From an uncultured beta proteobacterium (GTDB lineage: Bacteria > Pseudomonadota > Gammaproteobacteria > Burkholderiales > Burkholderiaceae_C), in the NCBI GenBank assembly GCA_963791595.1, contig CAWBTF010000014.1, forward strand, positions 455,417 through 519,416: a stretch of DNA of 64,000 nucleotides. The letters run 5' to 3'. The notes beneath the pieces were generated by a model. It was not told the DNA's origin and did not search any database. It was given only the letters and a program-made list of their open reading frames with translations. Every line of letters begins with the position of its first letter. The first letter of the stretch is position 1. The translations under genes were made by a program, and so were the position numbers. Positions 16,105 through 48,364 of this stretch are shown piece by piece.

Positions 16105-16872
16105 TCAAAACTGGTAGCGCCGCAAGCCGCCGTCCACGGGGATCACGGTACCGGTGATGTAGCTCGCGCGCGGACTGGCGAGGAACACCACCAGGTCGGC
16201 GAGGTCCTGCGGTTCGCCGTAGCGGCCCACGGGGATCTCGTTCTCCGCCTGCCACTGCCGATGCTCGGGCGTGTAGTTGCGAAAAATCTGCTCCGAGTGG
16301 ATGCGCCCCGGCGCGATGCAATTCACCGTGATGCCCTGCTTGCCCACCATTCGGCTCAAGCCCTTGGCCCAGCTGTGCATGCCGGCCTTCGCGCAGAACG
16401 CGCCGTTCACATGGTCGGGCTCGCTTTTTCCCGTGATGTTGACGATGCGGCCCCAGCGGCGCGCGACCATGCTGTCGATCAGCGCCTCGGCCAACTGGCG
16501 CGGCCGGTGGAAGTTCAGCGTCATTGCCTCGCTCCACGCCGCCTCGCCGACGTGCAGTTGCGTGAACGCCCGCGACCCGCCGGCGTTGTTGATCAGGATG
16601 TCCACCGTGCCCAGGCCTGCGCTTGCAGCGGCGGCGATGCGCTGCGGCGCGTCTTGCGCCAGGATGTCCTGCACCACGATCACCGGCGCCACGCCGCCGG
16701 CCGCGACGATCTCGGCGGCCAATTCTTCGAGCTGGTCGCCACGGCGCGCAGTGATCGCCAGCCGCACGCCCTCGGCCGCGAGCGCCTTTGCGATGCCGCG
16801 ACCGATGCCCACGCTCGCTCCGGTGACGAGCGCGGTTCGCCCTTGCAATTGCATGTCCATCGTGGGCTGCAC
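16105..16872 (-). CDS. SDR-family oxidoreductase
   Basis: [12 protein letters not shown] cofactor motif and a YxxxK-type catalytic region. Confidence 0.8.
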
Positions 16873-16923: not shown

Positions 16924-18060
16924 GTGAAAACATCAGCCCACCAAGCGCAACGCATCGTCGTCGGCCTTTCCGGAGGCGTGGACTCGGCCGTCAGCGCGCT
17001 GCTGCTCAAGCGTGCCGGCCACGAAGTGGTGGGCGTGTTCATGAAGAACTGGGAGGATGACGACGACAACGAATACTGTTCGTCGAACGCCGATTTCGTC
17101 GATGCCGCGGCCGTGGCCGACGTGATCGGCATCGAGATCGAACATGTCAACTTCGCCGCCGATTACAAGGACCGCGTCTTCGCCGAGTTCCTGCGCGAAT
17201 ACCAGGCCGGCCGCACGCCGAACCCTGACGTGCTGTGCAACGCCGAAATCAAGTTCAAGGCGTTCCTCGACCACGCAATGGTTCTCGGCGCGGAGAAAAT
17301 TGCCACCGGCCACTACGCACGCGTGCGCGAGCGCGACGGGCGCTTCGAGCTGCTGCGAGGGCTGGACCGCACGAAAGACCAGAGCTACTTCCTGCACCGC
17401 TTGAGCCAGGCGCAACTGGCGAAGACGCTTTTCCCGGTGGGCGAGCTGCCCAAGACCGAAGTTCGGCGCCTGGCCGAAGAGGCTGGCCTGCCGGTGGCCG
17501 CCAAGAAAGACTCGACCGGCATCTGCTTCATCGGCGAGCGGCCGTTTCGCGAGTTCCTCGAACGCTACCTCGCGAACCAGCCCGGGCCGATCACAGACGA
17601 GCGTGGGCGGATCATCGGCGAGCACGTGGGCCTGAGCTTCTACACGCTCGGCCAGCGCAAGGGCATGGGCATCGGCGGTGTGAAGGCGAAGCGCTCGGCG
17701 CGTGGCGGCGGCGAGCACGAGCCTTGGTTCGTCGCGCGCAAGGATGTCGCGAACAACACGCTGATCGTGGTGCAGGGCCACGAGCATCCGATGCTGCAAT
17801 CGCTGAAGCTGCAAGCGCTTGATGCGAGTTGGGTCGCGGGCGAAGCGCCCAGTCCCGCGCGGCGCAGTGCGAAAACGCGCTATCGACAGGCTGATGCGGC
17901 TTGCGAGCTGGACATTGCGCCGCCTGTGTCTGATGCCATGAACCGCGGGTTCGCGCTCAGCTTCGATTCGCCGCAGTGGGCCGTGACGCCGGGCCAGTCT
18001 GCCGTGCTCTACGACGGCGAGGTGTGCTTGGGCGGCGGGGTCATCGAGGCAGCGCTGTAG
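16924..18060 (+). CDS. mnmA: tRNA-specific 2-thiouridylase MnmA (GTG start inside the long ORF 16099-18060)
   Basis: PP-loop [32 protein letters not shown]…; the C-terminal region is also conserved. Confidence 0.9.
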
Positions 18061-18145
18061 CCACAGGCTCAGCCAGCGGCGCGCGCGCCACGGCGCGAAT
18101 TACGGTGAGCGAAGCGGCCGGCAGTGGAGCGCGCCTGCGTCCGAG

Positions 18146-18511
18146 CGGCAGGGCGGCGGCGCCGCCCCCGTTCTCCGGCCCACGCTCGCGGGGTACCACC
18201 GAGGTTGGCAACGGCCATTCTCGTCATCGCGGCCTGTGCCCTGGCAACGCTTGCGGGCCACCGCGAATGGGGCCTGCGAACGGGGGCACCACCACCGCCC
18301 TGTGCACGGTCGTTGGCGCGGCACCTCGTTGACCGTCACCTTTCGTGCCGGGGCAGGTGGCTCGGGGTGCGTTCGCAGGCCCCATTCGCGGTGGCCCGCA
18401 AACGGTTCCTTGGCACTGGCGGTGTTGACGCATGAACGCATCCTGACCACGGCGGTACCCCGCGAGCGTGGGCCGGAGAACGCACCCCGGGCCACCTGCC
18501 CGTGCTCGATG
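18146..18511 (+). repeat. MITE-like repeat, copy B (TIR TTCTCCGGCCCACGCTCGCGGGGTACC … GGTACCCCGCGAGCGTGGGCCGGAGAA)
   Basis: about 93-95% identical to copy C; lies intergenic between mnmA and the CAP-domain gene. Confidence 0.8.
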
Positions 18512-18574
18512 CCGGGGCGCAACGCGGGAGGCGGCGTGACCGAGGCCAGCGCGGCAGCGGCGTTTGCTCGGGGC

Positions 18575-20877: not shown

Positions 20878-23629
20878 TCACACGCTCCACGGCGCGCGGG
20901 CGCGCGCATCCAGCGCATAACGCTCGATCGCGCGCAGCGCCAAGCCTCGCTCGACGACGCCGCTGCGCGCCAACGCGTCGAGCGCGGCCAGTGCGATGTG
21001 GAATCGATCGACCTCAAAAAACCCGCGCAGCGCGACGCGCGTGTCGCTGCGGCCGAAGCCGTCGGTGCCGAGCGTGGTGTACGACGCGACGTTCAGGTAT
21101 TCGGCGATGAGCTGCGGCACGGCGCGCACGTAGTCGGTCGCGGCCACCACCGGCAGCGCGCCGTCCAGGCACTCCTGCACATAGCTCTGCTTCGGCGCTT
21201 GGGCAGGGTGCATGCGGTTGGCTCGCTGCACCTCGCGCGCGTCGCGCGCGAGTTCGGTGAAGCTCGTCGCGCTCCAGACCTCGGCCTGCACGCCGAAGTC
21301 CTGTTCCAGCAATTCCGCCGCGGCGATCGCCTCGAGCAGAATCGTTCCCGCGCCGAGCAATCGCACCTGCGCCGCGCCGCCGTTCGCGCTACCGTTCACT
21401 TCTCGGCACCGGTACAGACCGCGCATCGACACCGTCTTCGAGCCCCGGATTGCCTTGCGGCAGCGCCGGCTGCGCCAGGTTCTGGTTCGTGACGGTGAGG
21501 TAGTAGAACTCGTCGCGCTGCTCGTCGAGCAGGCGCTTCACGCCATGCGCGACGATGAGCGCGAGCTCGTAGCCGAACGCCGGGTCGTAGGCGCGGCAGT
21601 TCGAGATCGTCGACGCCGCGAGCAGGCTGCTTCCGTCCTGGTGCTGCAACCCCTCGCCCGACAGCGTGGTGCGCCCCGACGTCGCTCCGATCAGGAAGCC
21701 GCGCGCGCGCGAATCGGCGGCGGCGAGGATCAGGTCGCCGACGCGCGTGAAGCCGAAGCAGGAATAGAAGATGTAGAACGGCAGCATCGGCACGCCATGC
21801 GTGCTGTAGCTCGTCGCCGCGGCGATCCAGCTGCTCAGCGCGCCCGCTTCCGTGATGCCTTCTTCGAGGATCTGGCCGCTGCGCGATTCCTTGTAGTACA
21901 GCAGTTCGTCCTTGTCTTCGGGCTCGTAGAGCTGGCCCTGCGCGGCGTAGATCGCCACTTCGCGGAACAGGCTTTGCATGCCGAAGGTGCGCGCTTCGTC
22001 GGCGACGATCGGAACGATGTGTTTGCCGATGCGCTCATCGCGCAGCAGTTGCGTGAGCTGGGCGACGAACACCATCGTCGTCGATTGCTCTCGGCCGGCC
22101 AGGCGCTCGACGAGTTTGTGCGTCGCCGCCGGGTCGGGTGCGACCAAGCGCGGCGCCGCGCTGCTGCGCGCCGGCAGGTAGCCGCCCAGGCTCCTGCGCC
22201 GCTCGTGCAGGTAGCGCATCTCGGGGCTGTCGGCCTCTGGCCGGTAGAAGTTCAGTGCGCAGGCTTCTTCGTCTTTCAGCGGCAGCGCAAAGCGATCCCG
22301 GAACGCGAGCAGCGCGTCGTCTTCCAGCTTTTTCTGCTGGTGCGAGCCCATGCGGCCCTGGCCCCAGTGGCCCATGCCGTAGCCCTTCTTCGTCTGCGCC
22401 AGGATCACGCTCGGCCTTCCCGCATGCGTGGTCGCCGCGTGGTACGCGGCGTAGATCTTCACCGGGTCGTGGCCGCCGCGGCGCAGGCGGTCGATGTCGT
22501 CGTCCGACATGTGCGCGACCAACTGCTGCAGCTCCGGGTACTTGTTGAAGAAGTGTTCGCGGTTGAAGCGCCCGTCGGTCGCGGCGTAGGCCTGGAACTC
22601 GCCGTCCACGGTCTCGTGCAGGCGCTTGAGCAGCACGCCGTCCACGTCGCGTGCGAACAGCGGATCCCAGTCGCTGCCCCACATCAGCTTGATCACGTTC
22701 CAGCCCGCTCCGGCAAACAGGCCTTCCAGCTCCTGCACGACGGAGCCGTTGCCGCGCACCGGGCCGTCGAGGCGCTGCAAATTGCAGTTGACGACGAACA
22801 CCAGGTTGTCGAGCCCCTCGCGCGCCGCGAGCGACAGGCCGGCGAGCGATTCCGGTTCGTCCATCTCGCCGTCGCCGACGAAGGCCCAGACTTTTCTTCC
22901 CTGCGTATCGAGCAGACCCCGGTCGCGCAGGTAACGCATGAAGCGCGCCTGGTAGATCGCGGTGATCGGCCCCAGGCCCATCGAGCCGGTGGGGAACTGC
23001 CAGAAGTCTGGCATCAGCCAGGGGTGGCAGTAGGACGACAAACCACCGTTGGCCGGCGCGGATGCTGCCTGCGCATCGCGCGCACCGAGCGTCTCTTGCC
23101 GAAAGCGCATCAGCCGCGATTCGGGAAGTCTCCCTTCGAGGAACGCGCGCGCGTAGACACCGGGCGACGCATGCGGCTGAAAGAACACCAAGTCGCCGTT
23201 TTGACCGGCGCGGAAAAAGTGGTTGAAACCGACCTCGAACAGATCGGCGATCGACGCATACGTCGCGATGTGGCCGCCCAAGTCCCCAGAGAACTTGTTG
23301 CCGCGCACCACCATCGCCAGGGCGTTCCAGCGAACGGCGGCTGACAGCCGCGCCTCGATCTCCAGGTTGCCCGGGAACTGCGGCTGGCGGTCGAGCGAAA
23401 TGCTGTTCACGTAGGGCGTGTTCAGCACCGCGGGCAGCGGCACGCGCAGGCGCCGCGCTTCGTCGAGCAGGCGCCGCAGCACATAGGTGCCGCGCTCGGT
23501 GCCGACGTTGCGCACCAGCGTCGCGAAGCCGTCGAGCCATTCGCGGGTTTCGATCGGGTCGGCGTCGGCGGGAATGACGCGCCAGAAGGCGGCGCTGGTC
23601 GCCGCGGGCGGGAGGTCGTTGGGGTTCAT
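20878..23629 (-). CDS. aceE: pyruvate dehydrogenase E1 component (AceE-type homodimeric 2-oxoacid dehydrogenase E1); frame break near 21389-21432; orphan, no aceF/lpd adjacent
   Basis: ORF 21389-23629 (746 aa; ThDP-binding region) plus ORF 20878-21432 (184 aa; C-terminal domain) are consecutive E1 segments. Confidence 0.85.
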
Positions 23630-39984: not shown

Positions 39985-40746
39985 ATGACCGCGCCGCTGC
40001 TCGACGTGCAAGCCTTGAGCAAACGCTTCGGCGGCGTCGTCGCGACCGACGGCGTGAGCCTGTCGGTGCAGCGCGGCGAGATCCACGCACTGATCGGCCC
40101 GAACGGCGCGGGCAAGACGACACTCGTCGCGCAACTCGCGGGCCAGTTGCGCAGCGACTCCGGCAGCGTGCATTTCAACGGCGCCGACATCACGAGACTC
40201 GCCGCGCACCAGCGCGCGCGGCGCGGCCTGGTGCGCTCGTTTCAGATCACGCGGCTGCTGAAGAGCCTGTCGGTGCGCGACAACCTGGCGTTCGCGGTGC
40301 AGGCCACGCAAGGCGGCGTCTTCAGCGCCTGGCGGCCGGTGAGCGCCGATCGCGAGCTGGCGGCGCGCGCCGAAACGCTGCTCGCGCGCCTGGGCCTGGC
40401 CGACAAAGGCGAGGCGAGTGTCGAACAGTTGTCACACGGCGAACAGCGCGCCCTCGAAGTCGGCATGACGCTCGCGAGCCGGCCGCAACTGGTGTTGCTC
40501 GATGAGCCGCTGGCCGGCATGGGCGCGCAAGAGTCGCAGGGCATGTCGGCGCTGATCGCCGGGCTGCGCAGCGAGTGCGCGGTGCTGCTGATCGAGCACG
40601 ACGTCGACGCCGTGTTTCGCCTGGCCGATCGGGTGACCGTGCTGGTGGGCGGGCGCGTCGTCGCGAGCGGCGCGCCCGACGAGGTGCGGCGCCATCCCGA
40701 GGCGATCGCCGCCTATCTGGGCGATCCGCAGGGGGCGCCGGGATGA
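39985..40746 (+). CDS. livG: branched-chain amino-acid ABC transporter ATP-binding protein LivG
   Basis: Walker A GPNGAGKTT; signature LSHGEQRALEV. Confidence 0.88.
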   Translation: MTAPLLDVQALSKRFGGVVATDGVSLSVQRGEIHALIGPNGAGKTTLVAQLAGQLRSDSGSVHFNGADITRLAAHQRARRGLVRSFQITRLLKSLSVRDNLAFAVQATQGGVFSAWRPVSADRELAARAETLLARLGLADKGEASVEQLSHGEQRALEVGMTLASRPQLVLLDEPLAGMGAQESQGMSALIAGLRSECAVLLIEHDVDAVFRLADRVTVLVGGRVVASGAPDEVRRHPEAIAAYLGDPQGAPG

Positions 40747-41465
40747 GCGCCGACCTGCTGCACGTCGAGGGCTTGAGCGCGGGCTACCAGCGCACGCCCG
40801 TACTGTTCGATGTGGACTTGCAGGTGCGTGCCGGTGAAATCGTCGGCCTGCTCGGCCGCAACGGCATGGGCAAGACGACGCTCGTGCGCAGTCTGTTCGG
40901 CCTGGTGGCACGCAACGCCGGCACGGTGAGCTTCGACGGCGTGGCGCTCGGCGGCTTGTCCACGCACCGCATCGCACGCCTGGGGCTCGCCCTCGTTCCC
41001 GAAGGGCGGCAGATCTTCGGCAACCTGAGCGTTGAAGAGCACTTGACAGCGTTTGCACGCGAAGCGAGGTCCGCCCCGGGCGGTGCAACGCTCTGGACAC
41101 CGCAGCGCCTGTTCGATCTGTTCCCGCGCCTGGCCGAGCGCCGCCGGCACATGGGCGGTCAACTCTCCGGCGGCGAGCAGCAGATGCTCGCGATCGCGCG
41201 AGCGCTCGTCACGAACCCGAAGCTGCTGATCCTGGACGAAGCGACGGAAGGCCTGGCACCGCTGGTGCGTGAGGAAATCTGGCGCGTGCTGGGCCGTCTG
41301 CGCGAAGCGGGGCACGCGATGCTGGTGATCGACAAATACGTGCAGCGGCTGATCGCCATCGGCGACCGGCAGGTGATCCTGGAGAAAGGGCGGGTCGTGT
41401 GGAGCGGGAGCTCCGCGGCGCTGGATGCGGACCGCGGCGTGTGGGCGCGGCATCTGGGGATTTGA
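40743..41465 (+). CDS. livF: branched-chain amino-acid ABC transporter ATP-binding protein LivF (ATGA overlap with the livG stop)
   Basis: Walker A GRNGMGKTT; signature LSGGEQQMLAIARAL. Confidence 0.88.
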   Translation: MSADLLHVEGLSAGYQRTPVLFDVDLQVRAGEIVGLLGRNGMGKTTLVRSLFGLVARNAGTVSFDGVALGGLSTHRIARLGLALVPEGRQIFGNLSVEEHLTAFAREARSAPGGATLWTPQRLFDLFPRLAERRRHMGGQLSGGEQQMLAIARALVTNPKLLILDEATEGLAPLVREEIWRVLGRLREAGHAMLVIDKYVQRLIAIGDRQVILEKGRVVWSGSSAALDADRGVWARHLGI

Positions 41466-41678
41466 GAGGCCGAACGCCTGCGCTTTGGGCTCGCGGGCAT
41501 CGTCAAGCCGGACCGGGCAATGCCTCGCGCAGCATCTGTTTCATCAACTTTCCATTCGCATTGCGCGGCAGCGGCGAATCGCTCCACGTGATTGTCTCGG
41601 GAACCTTGTAGTCGGCGAGCAGCGCGGCGCAGTGGCTGCGCACCGCGGCGGCGTCGCGTGTCGCGTCCGGCGCGTAGA
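41405..41678. repeat. left copy of a 274-bp direct duplication flanking the IS (covers the last 61 bp of livF, the intergenic region and the 3' end of the acyl-CoA synthetase gene)
   Basis: matches 43654-43927 except for 2 substitutions (G/A and T/C). Confidence 0.85.
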
Positions 41679-43653
41679 CCCGACTTCCGCGCTTTTCCGC
41701 CCGCTTTACCCGCTCAGTCGTTGTGAATCAATGACTTATGTTCGCCGGGCACTACGTTTTTCGGTCTCGGGGGTGTGGCCGATGTAGTGCCCGCAGGTGG
41801 GGTTGGCGATGGGAGTCTTCGATCAGCTGCGATCCACCTCGACATCGAGATTGCGTTTGAGGCCGAACGCCTTGTAGATGCGCGCCGCGTCGTGCCCGAA
41901 GACGCTGGGCAGGCGGTACTTGGCCTTCGTGGTCTTGTGCTGCACGATGCTGGCCTGCACGTCGTGCAGGACGGCGCGGATGCGCTGCACGCTCATCGAG
42001 CCTTGCGCCAGCCCGATGCGCTGCTGGGCGTGGCGAGTCAGCGCGAAGGCCAGGTAGCACAGACCGATGTGGGCTTGGATTCGCTCGGGCTTGAAGTGGT
42101 AGATCGGGCGCACGGCCAAGCCGTGCTTGAGCGTGCGAAACGACTCCTCGATCACCCACAGCCGACGGTAGCGCGCCAGCAGTTCGCGAGCCCGGCTCGT
42201 GCGGTCGTTGGTGACGATGGCGTGCAGCCCGTCCCAGGCCGCGTCGTTGGCGATTCTGTCCTCGTCCAGCACGAACGCGCCGCCCGTGTCGGCCTGCTCC
42301 ACATAGCGCAGGTAGCCCGAGTTGGTGATCAGCTTTTGCGCGTTAGGCTTGGCGGGCTTGATCTCGCCGGTCTTCTTGTCCACGCGCTGGCTGGGGCCCA
42401 GCTTGGCGCTCAGGCGCTCAAGCAGCGCTTGGCGGTCGGCCCGATCCTTGTGCGCGCGCTTGGAGCTGTAGGTGACGATCAAGCGTCGGCCCTGCCAGTC
42501 GAACTCGCGCACCCAAACCAGATCGCCCTCGACCTCGCACGGCGCGGCCAGCGCCGTTTGCAGCACCTGTGCCTGCTCGGCCGCCTTCAGGCTCCTGCGC
42601 AGCGGCATGGCCACCACGTAGCTCCAGGGTGCGGCCTCCAGCGCGGTCAGGTTGGCCTTGCTGCACAGCGCCCGGTCGGCGACGAAGCTGACGCGCTCGA
42701 TCTTCAAACTCTGCTGCCAACTCCGCATGCACGCCAGCAGCGTACTCACCTCGGCCGTGTTCCCGGGGAACAGCTCGTAGCCGATGGGCAGCCCGTCGGC
42801 GTCGGTGGCCAAGGCCAGCACCACCTGCGTGCAGTGGTACTTCTGGTCCTTGGAGTAGCCGAAGGCGCGCAGCGTGTCGGCATCCACGCTCTCGAAGTAC
42901 AGCGTGCTCACATCGAACAGCATCACCTGCGCCGCGCCGCCAATCAGCGACGCGGTGGCCTCGTGCACGATTGCCTTCAAGCGATCGAGCCGCTTGTGCA
43001 GCGCATCCATCAGCCGGTACAAGCGGTCCAGCGGGTAGGCGCGACCGTAGTGCGCATCGAGCTCGGCGGCGCTGCCGCGCTTGGACGCCGGGGCCATGAC
43101 GCGGGCGATAACCAAGTCGCGCAGCATGGCCGTGCCGTGCACGCCCAGGATCCGGTCGAAGTGCAGGTAGTCGAACAGGTGGCCCAGCACCTCATGGGGC
43201 CCTTCCACGCGGCGCGCCACCTCGGCGACCTCGGCCAAGCGCACCTGGTCGGGCGCGGCCACCGAGGCCAGCGTCTGGCGCGGCGGGCGCCCGCCGCGGC
43301 GCACCGGGGCAGACTCGAACAGCGCCCCGGCATTGAGCCGCTCGGCGAGGCTGCGCGAGATGAACTCCTCGGCCATCGCGCGCAGCTTGATCTCTTCGTC
43401 GGCATCCAGCGCGATGCCGATGTGGCGCACGATGCGTTGCGTGACGCGATCGCCCTTTCGCGCGGACTCGACAACCTGCACGCTGCGGCGCGGGGAGTTG
43501 GGCGAGGACTTGATGCGAACGAACACGCCGCCACGTTACGCCACGATGGACCGCGACGCAAGCGGTATTAATAACTAGCTAGGCACTACAACTCCAAAAC
43601 TCGATTCCTCACCTATGAAGAACGGGCTCGGGGTGGGCCAAAACCGCCGAAGT
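41679..43653 (-). mobile_element. insertion sequence, IS4 superfamily / IS1634-like, 1975 bp, with imperfect ~20-bp terminal inverted repeats (CCCGACTTCCGCGCTTTTCCGCCC … GGGCCAAAACCGCCGAAGT)
   Basis: a single 567-aa DDE transposase ORF; element ends are defined exactly by the flanking 274-bp direct repeats. Confidence 0.8.
41823..43526 (-). CDS. IS4-superfamily (IS1634-like) DDE transposase, 567 aa, GTG start
   Basis: MFVRIKSSPNSPRRSVQVVES… N-terminus and overall length and organisation typical of IS1634-family transposases. Confidence 0.75.
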   Translation of the reverse strand: MFVRIKSSPNSPRRSVQVVESARKGDRVTQRIVRHIGIALDADEEIKLRAMAEEFISRSLAERLNAGALFESAPVRRGGRPPRQTLASVAAPDQVRLAEVAEVARRVEGPHEVLGHLFDYLHFDRILGVHGTAMLRDLVIARVMAPASKRGSAAELDAHYGRAYPLDRLYRLMDALHKRLDRLKAIVHEATASLIGGAAQVMLFDVSTLYFESVDADTLRAFGYSKDQKYHCTQVVLALATDADGLPIGYELFPGNTAEVSTLLACMRSWQQSLKIERVSFVADRALCSKANLTALEAAPWSYVVAMPLRRSLKAAEQAQVLQTALAAPCEVEGDLVWVREFDWQGRRLIVTYSSKRAHKDRADRQALLERLSAKLGPSQRVDKKTGEIKPAKPNAQKLITNSGYLRYVEQADTGGAFVLDEDRIANDAAWDGLHAIVTNDRTSRARELLARYRRLWVIEESFRTLKHGLAVRPIYHFKPERIQAHIGLCYLAFALTRHAQQRIGLAQGSMSVQRIRAVLHDVQASIVQHKTTKAKYRLPSVFGHDAARIYKAFGLKRNLDVEVDRS

Positions 43654-43927
43654 CGGGAGCTCCGCGGCGCTGGATGCGGACCGCGGCGTGTGGGCGCGGC
43701 ATCTGGGGATTTGAGAGGCCGAACGCCTGCGCTTTGGGCTCGCGGGCATCGTCAAGCCAGACCGGGCAATGCCTCGCGCAGCATCCGTTTCATCAACTTT
43801 CCATTCGCATTGCGCGGCAGCGGCGAATCGCTCCACGTGATTGTCTCGGGAACCTTGTAGTCGGCGAGCAGCGCGGCGCAGTGGCTGCGCACCGCGGCGG
43901 CGTCGCGTGTCGCGTCCGGCGCGTAGA
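43654..43927. repeat. right copy of the 274-bp direct duplication flanking the IS
   Basis: see the left copy. Confidence 0.85.
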
Positions 43928-45362
43928 GAAACGCATGCACGCGCTCACCCAGCACCGGGCAAGGCCGGCCGATCACTGCGGCCTCCACCACCCCCGGCAA
44001 CGCCATCAGCGCGTTCTCCACCTCGACCGAATAGACCTTGAACCCGCCGCGGTTCAGCATGTCTTTCTTGCGGTCGAAGATGCGCACGAAACCTTGCGCG
44101 TCGATCGAGCCCAGGTCGCCTGAATGCCAGTGGCCGGCAGTGAATGAGCTCGCGGTCGCGGCGGCGTTGTCCCAGTAGCCGGGCACGACCATCGGCCCGC
44201 CGATCCACAGCTCGCCGGTTTCGCCGGCCGGCACTTCAACGCCTTGTTCGTCCATCACGACGATGTGCGCGCAAGGCAAGACGACGCCCACGCTGTCGGC
44301 GTGCTCGCGCGTCAGGCCGGCGGGCATCATCGTCGCGGGCGAGGTGGTTTCGGTGGCGCCGTAGGCGTTGAGCAGCACCAGCTTGGGCACCGCTTCGCTG
44401 AGCGCGTCGATCGTCGCCACCGGCATCGGCGCGCCGCCGTAGCCGCCGATGCGCCAACTGCCGCAGGTCGCGCTGCGCGAAGCCGGGCGTCATCAGGCAG
44501 AGCGTGTACATCGCCGGCACCATCAGCGTGTGCGTGATGCGTTCGCGCTGCAGCAGCTCCACGAAGTCGGGCGCCTTGAATGCGGGAACGACGATCACGC
44601 GCGCCACCCACGTTGACCATCGCCAGGATGATCGCGACCAGCCCCGTCACATGGCTCGCCGGCACGGCAAGCGCGGAGCGGTCACCCGGCTGCAGCTTCA
44701 TGCACGACTGGTAGTGCAGCACCGAATGCGCGAGGTTGAAGTGCGTGAGCATCGCGCCCTTCGGGTTGCCGGTCGTGCCCGAGGTGTAGAGGATGACGGC
44801 GGTGGCGTGTTCGCTCACCGCCGCGGCCTCGGGCGCGGCGCCGGGTTCGGCGGCGAGCTCGGCCAAGGGCATCGCGCCCGGCGCGGCACCGACCACGATG
44901 CGCAGCGCAAGCGAGGGCACTTCGGTCTCGCTCGGCACACGCTCGGCCAGATTCAGCGTCGAACACGATGCCCTTGGCCGTGCATTGGTTGAGCATGTAG
45001 GCCAGCCCGGCACGCGCTTCGCGCACGCCGATCGGCACCGCGATCGCACCGAGCCGCTGCAAGGCGAACAGCACGAACACGAACTCGGCGCGGTTGCCCA
45101 TGAACAGCGCGACGCGGTCGCCCGCCCCAACGCCACGCTTGCTGCAGACCGGCGGCGATGCGCGCGGCCTGCGTATCCAATTCGGAATACGTCCAACGCC
45201 GGCCGTCGCACACCAGCGCCTCTTGCGCGCCGCGCTCCCGCACCGCGCGCGCGAGCATCGCGTGCACGCTCGCGGGCGCCGCACAAAGGCGCGCACCAGG
45301 CGGTCGGGCTGCGGCGCTTCGATGCGCGTCGCGCCGACCGGGTAGTCTTGCCAGTGGTTCAT
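43752..45362 (-). pseudogene. AMP-dependent synthetase/ligase (acyl-CoA synthetase family), disrupted by at least 5 frame breaks; its 3' end lies inside the duplicated segment next to the IS
   Basis: at least 6 consecutive segments in alternating frames (MNHWQDYPVGA…; …LVCDGRRWTYSELDTQAARIA…; …GDRVALFMGNRAEFVFV…; …ILYTSGTTGNPKGAMLTHFNLA…; …ARVIVVPAFKAPDFVELLQRERITH…; …GELWIGGPMVVPGYWDN…NGKLMKRMLREALPGLA). Confidence 0.7.
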
Positions 45363-46096
45363 CGCAGATTCATCTCGCATCGCTCGTCGACTGCATCGGT
45401 CGGCTGCGATCGACGCCGGCTCCAACGCGAACTCAATCTCCAGCCGCACCCAGCCGGCACAAGATTCGCGCCGCGCTCGATCGTGAACTCGGTATCGATC
45501 AAGCTGCGCGAATGGTTCAGGTCGGACTGCGCGATCAGCACCGCCATCGCGCCGCCGCGCAGGCCGCCGATCACGTCAGCCAGGCGGTTCGCCAAAGCCG
45601 GCGCCACGCCCTCGAACGGCTCGTCGAGCAGCAACAGTTTCGTGCCGACCGCGAGCGCACGCGCGAGCGCGACGAGCTTCTGCTGCCCACCGGAGAGCAG
45701 CAGCGCCCGCCGCTCGCGCATCTCTTTCAGCTCGGGCAGCACGCCGTAGACGAATTCCAGTCGCGTCTCGGCCTTCAGCGCTTTCGACGCCCACACCGGA
45801 ACCAGGATGTTTTCTTCGACCGTGAGTTCGGGCACCAGGCCGCGATCTTCGGGCATGTAGCCGATGCCCAGGGCCGCGCGCGCGTGGCGCGGCAGTTTGG
45901 CGAGGTCCTGGCCTTCGAAGGCGATGCGGCCTTGCGTCACCGGCAAGTGCCCCATCACGCTGCGGATCAGCGTCGTCTTGCCCGCGCCGTTGCGCCCGAC
46001 CAGGCCGATCATGCGCCCCGCCGGCGCGGCCAGGCTCAGCCCGCGCAGCACCTGCACCGCGCCGATCGCGACGTGGATCGCTTCAATGGCGAGCAT
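45359..46096 (-). CDS. LivF-type ABC transporter ATP-binding protein (second Liv-like system)
   Basis: Walker A GRNGAGKTT; signature LSGGQQKLVALARAL; TGA overlaps the acyl-CoA synthetase ATG (ATGA). Confidence 0.8.
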   Translation of the reverse strand: MLAIEAIHVAIGAVQVLRGLSLAAPAGRMIGLVGRNGAGKTTLIRSVMGHLPVTQGRIAFEGQDLAKLPRHARAALGIGYMPEDRGLVPELTVEENILVPVWASKALKAETRLEFVYGVLPELKEMRERRALLLSGGQQKLVALARALAVGTKLLLLDEPFEGVAPALANRLADVIGGLRGGAMAVLIAQSDLNHSRSLIDTEFTIERGANLVPAGCGWRLSSRWSRRRSQPTDAVDERCEMNLR

Positions 46097-47874: not shown

Positions 47875-47940
47875 GGGTTCCGATATCGCGGCGCTCACTG
47901 CGGAAGCTCCATCGAGCAGGGCAGCGCGCATACGTCCGCG

Positions 47941-48304
47941 CGGCAGGGCGGTGGCGGCGCCCCCGCTCTCCGGCCCACGCTCGCGGGGTACCACCGAAGC
48001 CCACAACAGACAGCCGCGTCATCGCCGTCCAAGTGCACGAAGAGCCAGGACACCGCGAATGGGGCCTGCGATCGGGGGCACCACCACCGCCCTGTGCAAG
48101 GTCGTTGGCGCGCCACCTCGTTGACCGTCACCTTCGTGCCGGGGGCAGGTGGCTCGGGGTGCGTTCGCAGGCCCCATTCGCGGTGGCCCGCAAGCGCATC
48201 CAGGGCACTGGCGGTTTTGACGCATAAATGATTCCCTGCCGCGACTGGTACCCCGCGAGCGTGGGCCGGAGAACGCACCCCGGGCCGCCTGCCCCTGCTC
48301 GATG
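47941..48304 (+). repeat. MITE-like repeat, copy C, inserted between the two permease genes of the second Liv-like operon
   Basis: TIR GCTCTCCGGCCCACGCTCGCGGGGTACC … GGTACCCCGCGAGCGTGGGCCGGAGAACG; about 93-95% identical to copy B. Confidence 0.8.
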
Positions 48305-48364
48305 CTCGGGCGCGGATCGGCCAAGTTGCCACCGACGCGCGGAAAGCAAGTGTCGAAACCGCGC

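Follow-up and report, generated by a model that had tools for sequence, protein, structure and literature searches.

Nearly all DDE transposases leave at their target a short duplication of fixed length, both ends of the element attacking from one rigid complex; an exception to this rule, represented by the insertion sequences (ISs) IS1634 and IS1549, has been recognised since the late 1990s. Here, we describe an IS of this kind, together with the long duplication of host DNA that very probably arose when it transposed, in a 64,000-nucleotide stretch of DNA from an uncultured beta proteobacterium (contig CAWBTF010000014.1; this whole stretch is hereafter called the window). According to the 2008 review of the family, an AT-rich duplication of 5–6 bp is the norm for IS1634-family elements, and long variable repeats, of 8–514 bp, were on record for two members only, IS1549 of Mycobacterium smegmatis and IS1634 of Mycoplasma mycoides; no mechanistic model for the long repeats had been proposed at that time (PMC2266710). 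The features by which IS1634 was then split from IS4 are a YREK motif without its arginine, a long D–E spacer, a size of 1.5–2 kb and ends of the form C-----YT (De Palmenaer 2008; PMC2266710). A 13-bp duplication by IS1549 has been described in a laboratory lsr2 mutant (PMC10066036). Our literature search retrieved no report of long duplications in prokaryotic ISs after the 2008 review.

A repeat search over positions 40000–45500 and over the full window returned a direct repeat of 274 nt (41405–41678 and 43654–43927), ungapped and with two mismatches (41510 G/43759 A and 41537 T/43786 C), just as an earlier note on this DNA had reported. No other repeat in the window is as long or as identical as this pair; the runner-up is a dispersed repeat of just 188 nt at 89% identity, and a chance origin of the 274-nt pair is thus excluded. 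The limits of the element, however, had to be moved. In all other copies that we found (see below) the IS termini read CCYGACTTC...GAAGTCGGG, and each copy aligns end to end with window positions 41679–43657. Because these copies all finish with ...GAAGTCGGG, we assign the CGGG at 43654–43657 to the terminus of the IS and not to duplicated target; the CGGG at 41405–41408 is a 4-nt coincidence. It follows that the element measures 1979 bp, instead of the 1975 bp originally proposed, and that the duplication is one of 270 bp (41409–41678 and 43658–43927), still with two mismatches, rather than of 274 bp. The earlier note was right that the 274-nt segment comprises the last 61 bp of livF, a gene for an amino acid transporter ATPase that ends at 41465, and the 3′-end of a convergent acyl-CoA synthetase gene with its stop codon at 43752–43754. 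Its argument that the two substitutions speak for an insertion that is not brand new, and against an assembly collapse, appears reasonable, and the two differences it builds on are confirmed.

We therefore read the locus as follows: an IS1634-family element has very probably transposed into the junction between the 3′-ends of livF and of the synthetase gene and has duplicated 270 bp of target, leaving one copy on each flank. The duplicated DNA is host DNA: it contains the 3′-ends of both genes, and in orthologous loci each of these is single. We also considered whether the repeats might be long terminal repeats of the element, which was rejected, as their sequence differs at every copy and consists of host genes.

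The decisive evidence for a long target duplication comes from independent insertions with differing host sequence and length. A scan of species-representative genomes yielded three full copies of the element, at 95–96.5% nucleotide identity, in the metagenome-assembled genome (MAG) 'uncultured beta proteobacterium MFD04651.bin.2.88'. An exact-protein look-up added three copies with an identical transposase, at 99.9–100% nucleotide identity, on other contigs of European Nucleotide Archive (ENA) sample ERZ25039524; this near-identity on three further contigs points to an element that is recent and multi-copy. A long repeat flanks five of the seven copies. At loci L001, L002, L003 and L027 (Table 1), the repeated host sequences are unrelated to each other and abut the IS to the nucleotide. 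Thus, a single element, with copies at least 95% identical in nucleotide sequence, is bounded by long, abutting repeats of five different lengths (270, 73, 479, 620 and ~417 bp), the longest of which is beyond the published upper limit of 514 bp.

The same architecture recurs in relatives of the element. A relative with 76% amino acid identity is flanked by a 139-bp repeat, found in two samples, and three metagenomic relatives have repeats of 29, 45 and 48 bp. A Parachlamydiales MAG harbours an element with a transposase 42–46% identical to that of the window and with the same termini, CCTGACTTC...GAAGTCGGG; its copies are all repeat-flanked (4/4; 446, 341, 334 and 93 bp). An IS1634-family copy in a finished record of Mycoplasmopsis gallopavonis, with termini CCTGAGTT..., one base off CCTGACTT, has a repeat of 43–44 bp. 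Over the IS and its relatives, the repeats range from 29 to 620 bp and consist of a different host sequence each time, and the claim of a long target duplication is in this way replicated well beyond the original locus. No short duplication of at least 4 bp was found, at any boundary shift of up to 4 nt in either direction, in the 36 metagenomic relatives whose flanks were usable. Relatives down to ~28% amino acid identity keep the terminal motif C[CT]NGACTT. The flanks themselves are biased: in 48 IS1634-family copies (L031–L110 and others), the base at −1 is T in 45/48, −2 is a pyrimidine in 40/47 and −4 is T in 31/47, and on the downstream side +1 is A in 41/48, +2 is a purine in 40/47 and +4 is A in 29/46. 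This is one symmetric preference, T before and A after the IS, read from either end. The flanking T and A were also considered as bases of the IS itself and rejected, since in the long-repeat copies both repeat copies contain them, which makes them target DNA.

More than 120 metagenomic relatives at least 73% identical were found, all of them without a name. Nearly all lie on contigs of about 2 kb (2.0–2.5 kb), so that the flanks, and any duplication in them, are systematically invisible in short-read assemblies, which break at these elements. Some of the longer records have features of their own. One Parachlamydiales copy (L011, 4433–5129) has an extra insert of ~670 bp inside the element, and its 93-bp direct repeat still flanks the whole. 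A contig of a Chlamydiales MAG (L020, 2410–3908) carries, near a partial IS copy, a long and diverged tandem array of ~100-bp units with 67–74% identity. In the M. gallopavonis record (NZ_LR215032.1; L111, 16581–23393), IS3 and IS1634-family insertions are nested and several host segments are repeated (137 bp at 16581–16717 and 21273–21409; 94 bp at 18045–18138 and 23300–23393; 44 bp at 21366–21409 and 23256–23299); these look like layered long target duplications. This record is labelled as a plasmid yet carries chromosomal housekeeping genes.

Table 1. Features of the livF/synthetase locus, in window coordinates, and repeats flanking four further copies of the element
Feature	Position	Strand	Remarks
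IS1634-family insertion sequence, 1979 bp	41679..43657	− (transposase strand)	Full-length matches (1–1979) to six other copies, 95–100% nucleotide identity
Transposase gene, 567 aa, GTG start	41823..43526	−	Sole long open reading frame between the repeat copies
Terminal inverted repeat, transposase-distal end	41679..41701	+	CCCGACTTCCGCGCTTTTCCGCC; inverted-repeat search
Terminal inverted repeat, transposase-proximal end	43635..43657	−	Reverse complement CCCGACTTCGGCGGTTTTGGCCC
Putative target-site duplication, copy 1, 270 bp	41409..41678	.	Intact 3′-end of livF, 37-bp spacer and relic synthetase 3′ fragment; boundary from termini of other copies
Putative target-site duplication, copy 2, 270 bp	43658..43927	.	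Relic livF end, last 57 nt (43658–43714), and 3′-end contiguous with the acyl-CoA synthetase gene
livF-type branched-chain amino acid ABC transporter ATPase gene, intact	40743..41465	+	90–91% identical orthologues named by JGI; ends in duplication copy 1
Acyl-CoA synthetase (AMP-binding) gene, convergent with livF	43752..45380	−	3′-end in duplication copy 2; five 1-bp indels
Further copy, L001			620-bp abutting direct repeat, 16 mismatches
Further copy, L002			479-bp abutting direct repeat, 1 mismatch
Further copy, L003			73-bp abutting direct repeat, 0 mismatches
Further copy, L027			~417-bp repeat, 249 nt visible, left copy cut by contig end, 1 mismatch

The earlier note had described a single 567-residue DDE transposase and had labelled the element IS4/IS1634-like; the first statement is borne out, and of the label only the IS1634 part stands. 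The catalytic triad (D205, D284 and E460) is intact and is invariant in an alignment with seven relatives, the spacer of 176 residues from the second D to the E is unusually long, and the motif at the glutamate, Y453-x2-L456-x3-E460-x6-K467, is a YREK in which leucine replaces the arginine. The transposase matches the NCBIfam profile NF033559 ('IS1634 family transposase') with 347.8 bits, against a cut-off of 100, over profile positions 1–482 of 483, and all eight aligned relatives likewise match this profile. The models for IS4, IS701, IS1380 and IS5 all stay well under their cut-offs (for IS4, NF033592, 33.9 against 115 bits), and the Pfam domain DDE_Tnp_1 is found with 63.9 bits. The terminal inverted repeats are imperfect, with nine identical terminal nucleotides (CCCGACTTC) and 18 matching positions out of 23; the ends, CCCGACTT, have C1, T7 and T8 and fit the family consensus C-----YT. 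At 1979 bp and with terminal inverted repeats, the element also falls in the family range of 1500–2000 bp. Its GC content (66.7%) is close to that of the window (66.9%). With motif, spacer, size and end consensus all as in the definition of De Palmenaer, the element is by its sequence assigned to the IS1634 family, of which it lacks the typical 5–6-bp AT-rich duplication, having one of 270 bp. Neither the profile, nor a complete YREK, nor a fixed 8–13-bp duplication, as expected of the IS4 family, was found. The earlier note had also called the long duplication a hallmark of IS1634 transposition, which is confirmed for the clade studied here but is too strong for the family as a whole, for which the published norm is 5–6 bp and long repeats are reported in two members only.

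Of the described systems closest to it, IS1634 of M. mycoides subsp. mycoides SC and its near relative ISMbov3 share with our element the NCBIfam model, one long DDE transposase, a size of ~1.9 kb and long variable repeats (PMC2266710). Transposases of Mollicutes members, however, are only ~27–29% identical to that of the window in amino acid sequence, and the host is here a high-GC uncultured betaproteobacterium, with the IS at the host's 67% GC. IS1549 of M. smegmatis belongs to the same family (formerly the IS1549 family) and likewise has long variable repeats, along with shorter ones such as that of 13 bp (PMC10066036), but its host is an actinobacterium, and relatives on Mycobacterium plasmids are <30% identical to our transposase. 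Members with short duplications (ISGka5 and archaeal elements) match the family hidden Markov model and have the long D–E spacer, the arginine-less YREK, the C-----YT ends and the size of 1.5–2 kb; the AT-rich duplications of 5–6 bp are theirs (PMC2266710), whereas this element and the 36 relatives lack a short duplication. With IS4 proper (IS10, IS50/Tn5, IS231) our element shares the DDE_Tnp_1 domain, a single transposase reading frame and terminal inverted repeats; in contrast, those elements make fixed duplications of 8–13 bp from a rigid synaptic complex (PMC2266710), and our transposase is without the YREK arginine and scores below the IS4 cut-off. A profile search of the PDB found no relative of the transposase, a megablast search of PLSDB gave no match to the IS, and tblastn against plasmids returned only IS1634-family genes <30% identical, with no specific IS name besides ISAzo6. 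Thus, the element joins the already known long-repeat-forming IS1634/IS1549 type as a new example that has no name yet.

Neither reading frame at the insertion site is truncated by the insertion: the 3′-end of livF is whole in copy 1 and that of the synthetase gene in copy 2, the synthetase stop codon in the latter corresponding to positions 41503–41505 of the former. Read in the synthetase frame, each of the two substitutions that separate the copies changes an amino acid (copy 2, KRMLREALPGLA; copy 1, KQMLREALPGPA). Since orthologues read KRVLRE at this stretch, the R-to-Q change, the only one of the two that could be polarised, is derived in the relic copy (copy 1). Compared with its orthologues in L028 and L029, the synthetase gene carries 1-bp indels at 45273, 45138, 44951, 44599 and 44458; seven neighbouring genes are intact, with 91–97% amino acid identity. 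The gene is probably a recent pseudogene, although the indels could possibly be sequencing errors confined to it. In three orthologous loci (LivF 82–91% identical), one of which (L030) comes from sample ERZ25039524, an AMP-binding gene comes after the liv operon in convergent orientation, and both 3′-ends are present once each; an exact look-up of the LivF sequence gave no match. The interval between the two genes is apparently a hotspot of gene insertion: it holds an outer membrane protein β-barrel gene in L028 (4724–5341), genes for an MT-A70 methylase and a BglII-like endonuclease in L029 (4724–6359), and three unrelated genes in L030 (4736–7358). Elsewhere in the window, a GC-rich repeat cluster is dispersed over three intergenic places (~530–1050, ~18120–18520 and ~47916–48313) with 84–96% identity and in both orientations; it holds internal inverted repeats such as GGACACCGCGAATGGGGCCTGCGA and resembles an element of REP or MITE type (repetitive extragenic palindrome or miniature inverted-repeat transposable element).

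We know of no biochemical model for the IS1634 family. In the scheme that we consider moderately likely, each 3′-OH end of the element would attack a target phosphate beside a preferred base; the two attacks would fall on opposite strands, with a 5′ stagger that here spans 270 bp, at joints chosen largely independently of each other. The intervening duplex would be unwound or strand-displaced, and host DNA synthesis would copy the 270-nt stretch on either side, giving the two repeat copies. As the spacing would not be set by the transposase complex, the same element could produce duplications of varied length, from some tens of bp up to over 600 bp. This loose stagger is to be set against variants in which a structure unwound beforehand (a fork, a gap or an R-loop) determines the distance. 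There, the ends would insert into DNA already unwound or replicated, at a replication fork, a lagging-strand gap or an R-loop, and the size of the structure would set the length of the same duplication. Bacterial Okazaki fragments and transcription-associated structures are of sizes within which the observed 29–620 bp lies. Moreover, several duplications cover the 3′-ends of convergent genes, in the window and also in the low-GC Parachlamydiales loci L008 and L012, where the ends of convergent open reading frames are included. This placement, however, may simply reflect the survival of harmless insertions, selection for insertions that spare genes giving the same bias towards gene ends; we regard this origin of the spacing as rather unlikely.

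Several observations weigh against the long-duplication reading or its proposed mechanism. In an experiment, insertion of ISGka5 of Geobacillus kaustophilus produced a repeat of 6 bp (PMC8024623), in line with the 5–6-bp norm of the family. A strict empty site was not found, as in the orthologous loci, including the closest (LivF 90–91% identical), livF and the synthetase gene are separated by other genes; the comparison with uninterrupted loci suggested in the earlier note thus gave single-copy 3′-ends, which point to a single-copy ancestry of the duplicated segment, but no empty site at the nucleotide level. The geometry of strand transfer and the repair step are deduced from the anatomy of the insertions only. 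Finally, no flanking repeat was found at L005 (3869–5852), L025 (3088–5066) and L015 (3875–5789), which are on long contigs, or at L061, L067, L036 and L118, on short-read contigs, and such copies are not predicted by the simple model. In L005, the IS stands between the end of a GH10 xylanase gene and the C-terminal half of a pyrroloquinoline quinone (PQQ) sugar dehydrogenase gene; because it joins the end of one gene to half of another, target DNA has been lost or rearranged there. A check for a local deletion at L005 turned up xylanase homologue loci that either have the same insertion (L112) or are not syntenic (L113). In L061, L067 and L072, short-read contigs that are possibly chimeric assemblies, the broken genes are not continued past the IS.

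A broader reading, which we hold only tentatively and think somewhat doubtful, would take in the copies that lack a repeat. Instead of being a peculiarity of two elements, long variable duplications may be what insertion ordinarily produces throughout a large clade of IS1634-family elements whose conserved termini read CCYGACTT, a clade that spans Betaproteobacteria, Chlamydiae, Legionellaceae, Campylobacteraceae and Mollicutes. The two ends would choose their phosphates independently, each beside a T, and a 5′ stagger of d would give a duplication of d bp, and an opposite stagger a deletion of d bp. If so, the opposite stagger would explain the copies without a flanking repeat.

Three other accounts dispense with a long target duplication altogether. 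In the first, two ordinary insertions in the same orientation, 270 bp apart on sister chromosomes or in sister strains, were followed by homologous recombination between the ISs, with a single IS between duplicated flanks as the product. With an IS that is multi-copy and has been active recently, such recombination could occur, and the copies without a flanking repeat at L005 and L025 suggest that rearrangements do take place at these elements. Yet this account needs two close insertions in the same orientation and a crossover for 5/7 copies of this IS and again for 4/4 of the Parachlamydiales element, and it predicts short duplications at ordinary insertions, of which none was seen in the 36 relatives; it is very improbable. 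In the second account, a single 270-bp segment was doubled by an assembler as it placed a polymorphic or multi-copy IS. The source is indeed a metagenome assembly, and the related contig L027 breaks within its flanking repeat, showing that such repeats do trouble assemblers; but the copies differ at two positions, the source contig is 793 kb long, and the same architecture, with other host sequences and lengths, is found at ten or more independent insertions from several assemblies and assemblers and in the finished Mycoplasmopsis record, which leaves an artefact scarcely credible. Equally hard to credit is a tandem duplication of the livF/synthetase junction that was already present when the IS landed exactly at its joint: the intergenic spot is variable in relatives, with differing cargo genes, but both IS ends abut the repeats to the nucleotide, which is no coincidence when seen at more than ten unrelated sites, and the orthologous loci have single copies.

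The reading of the locus as a long target duplication made by an IS1634-family element adds to a phenomenon that is already known, and a single such locus would not surprise a specialist; it is the replicated set of insertions that offers a handle on an unsolved mechanism. At this locus, an uncultured betaproteobacterium carries an example that is multi-copy and was active recently, and for which five duplications of 73–620 bp were measured; the same trait is found in a 42–46%-identical relative from another phylum, with conserved termini and a symmetric preference at the joints. Such elements break short-read assemblies, and IS annotation tools that expect short duplications will mis-call them. 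For the host, insertions of this kind can spare both neighbouring genes and are in principle reversible by recombination between the repeats, the length and the 99% identity of the two 270-bp copies presumably sufficing for homologous recombination to excise the IS precisely. If the cross-phylum reading is true, these elements would stand for a kind of DDE transposition in which the target stagger is not fixed.

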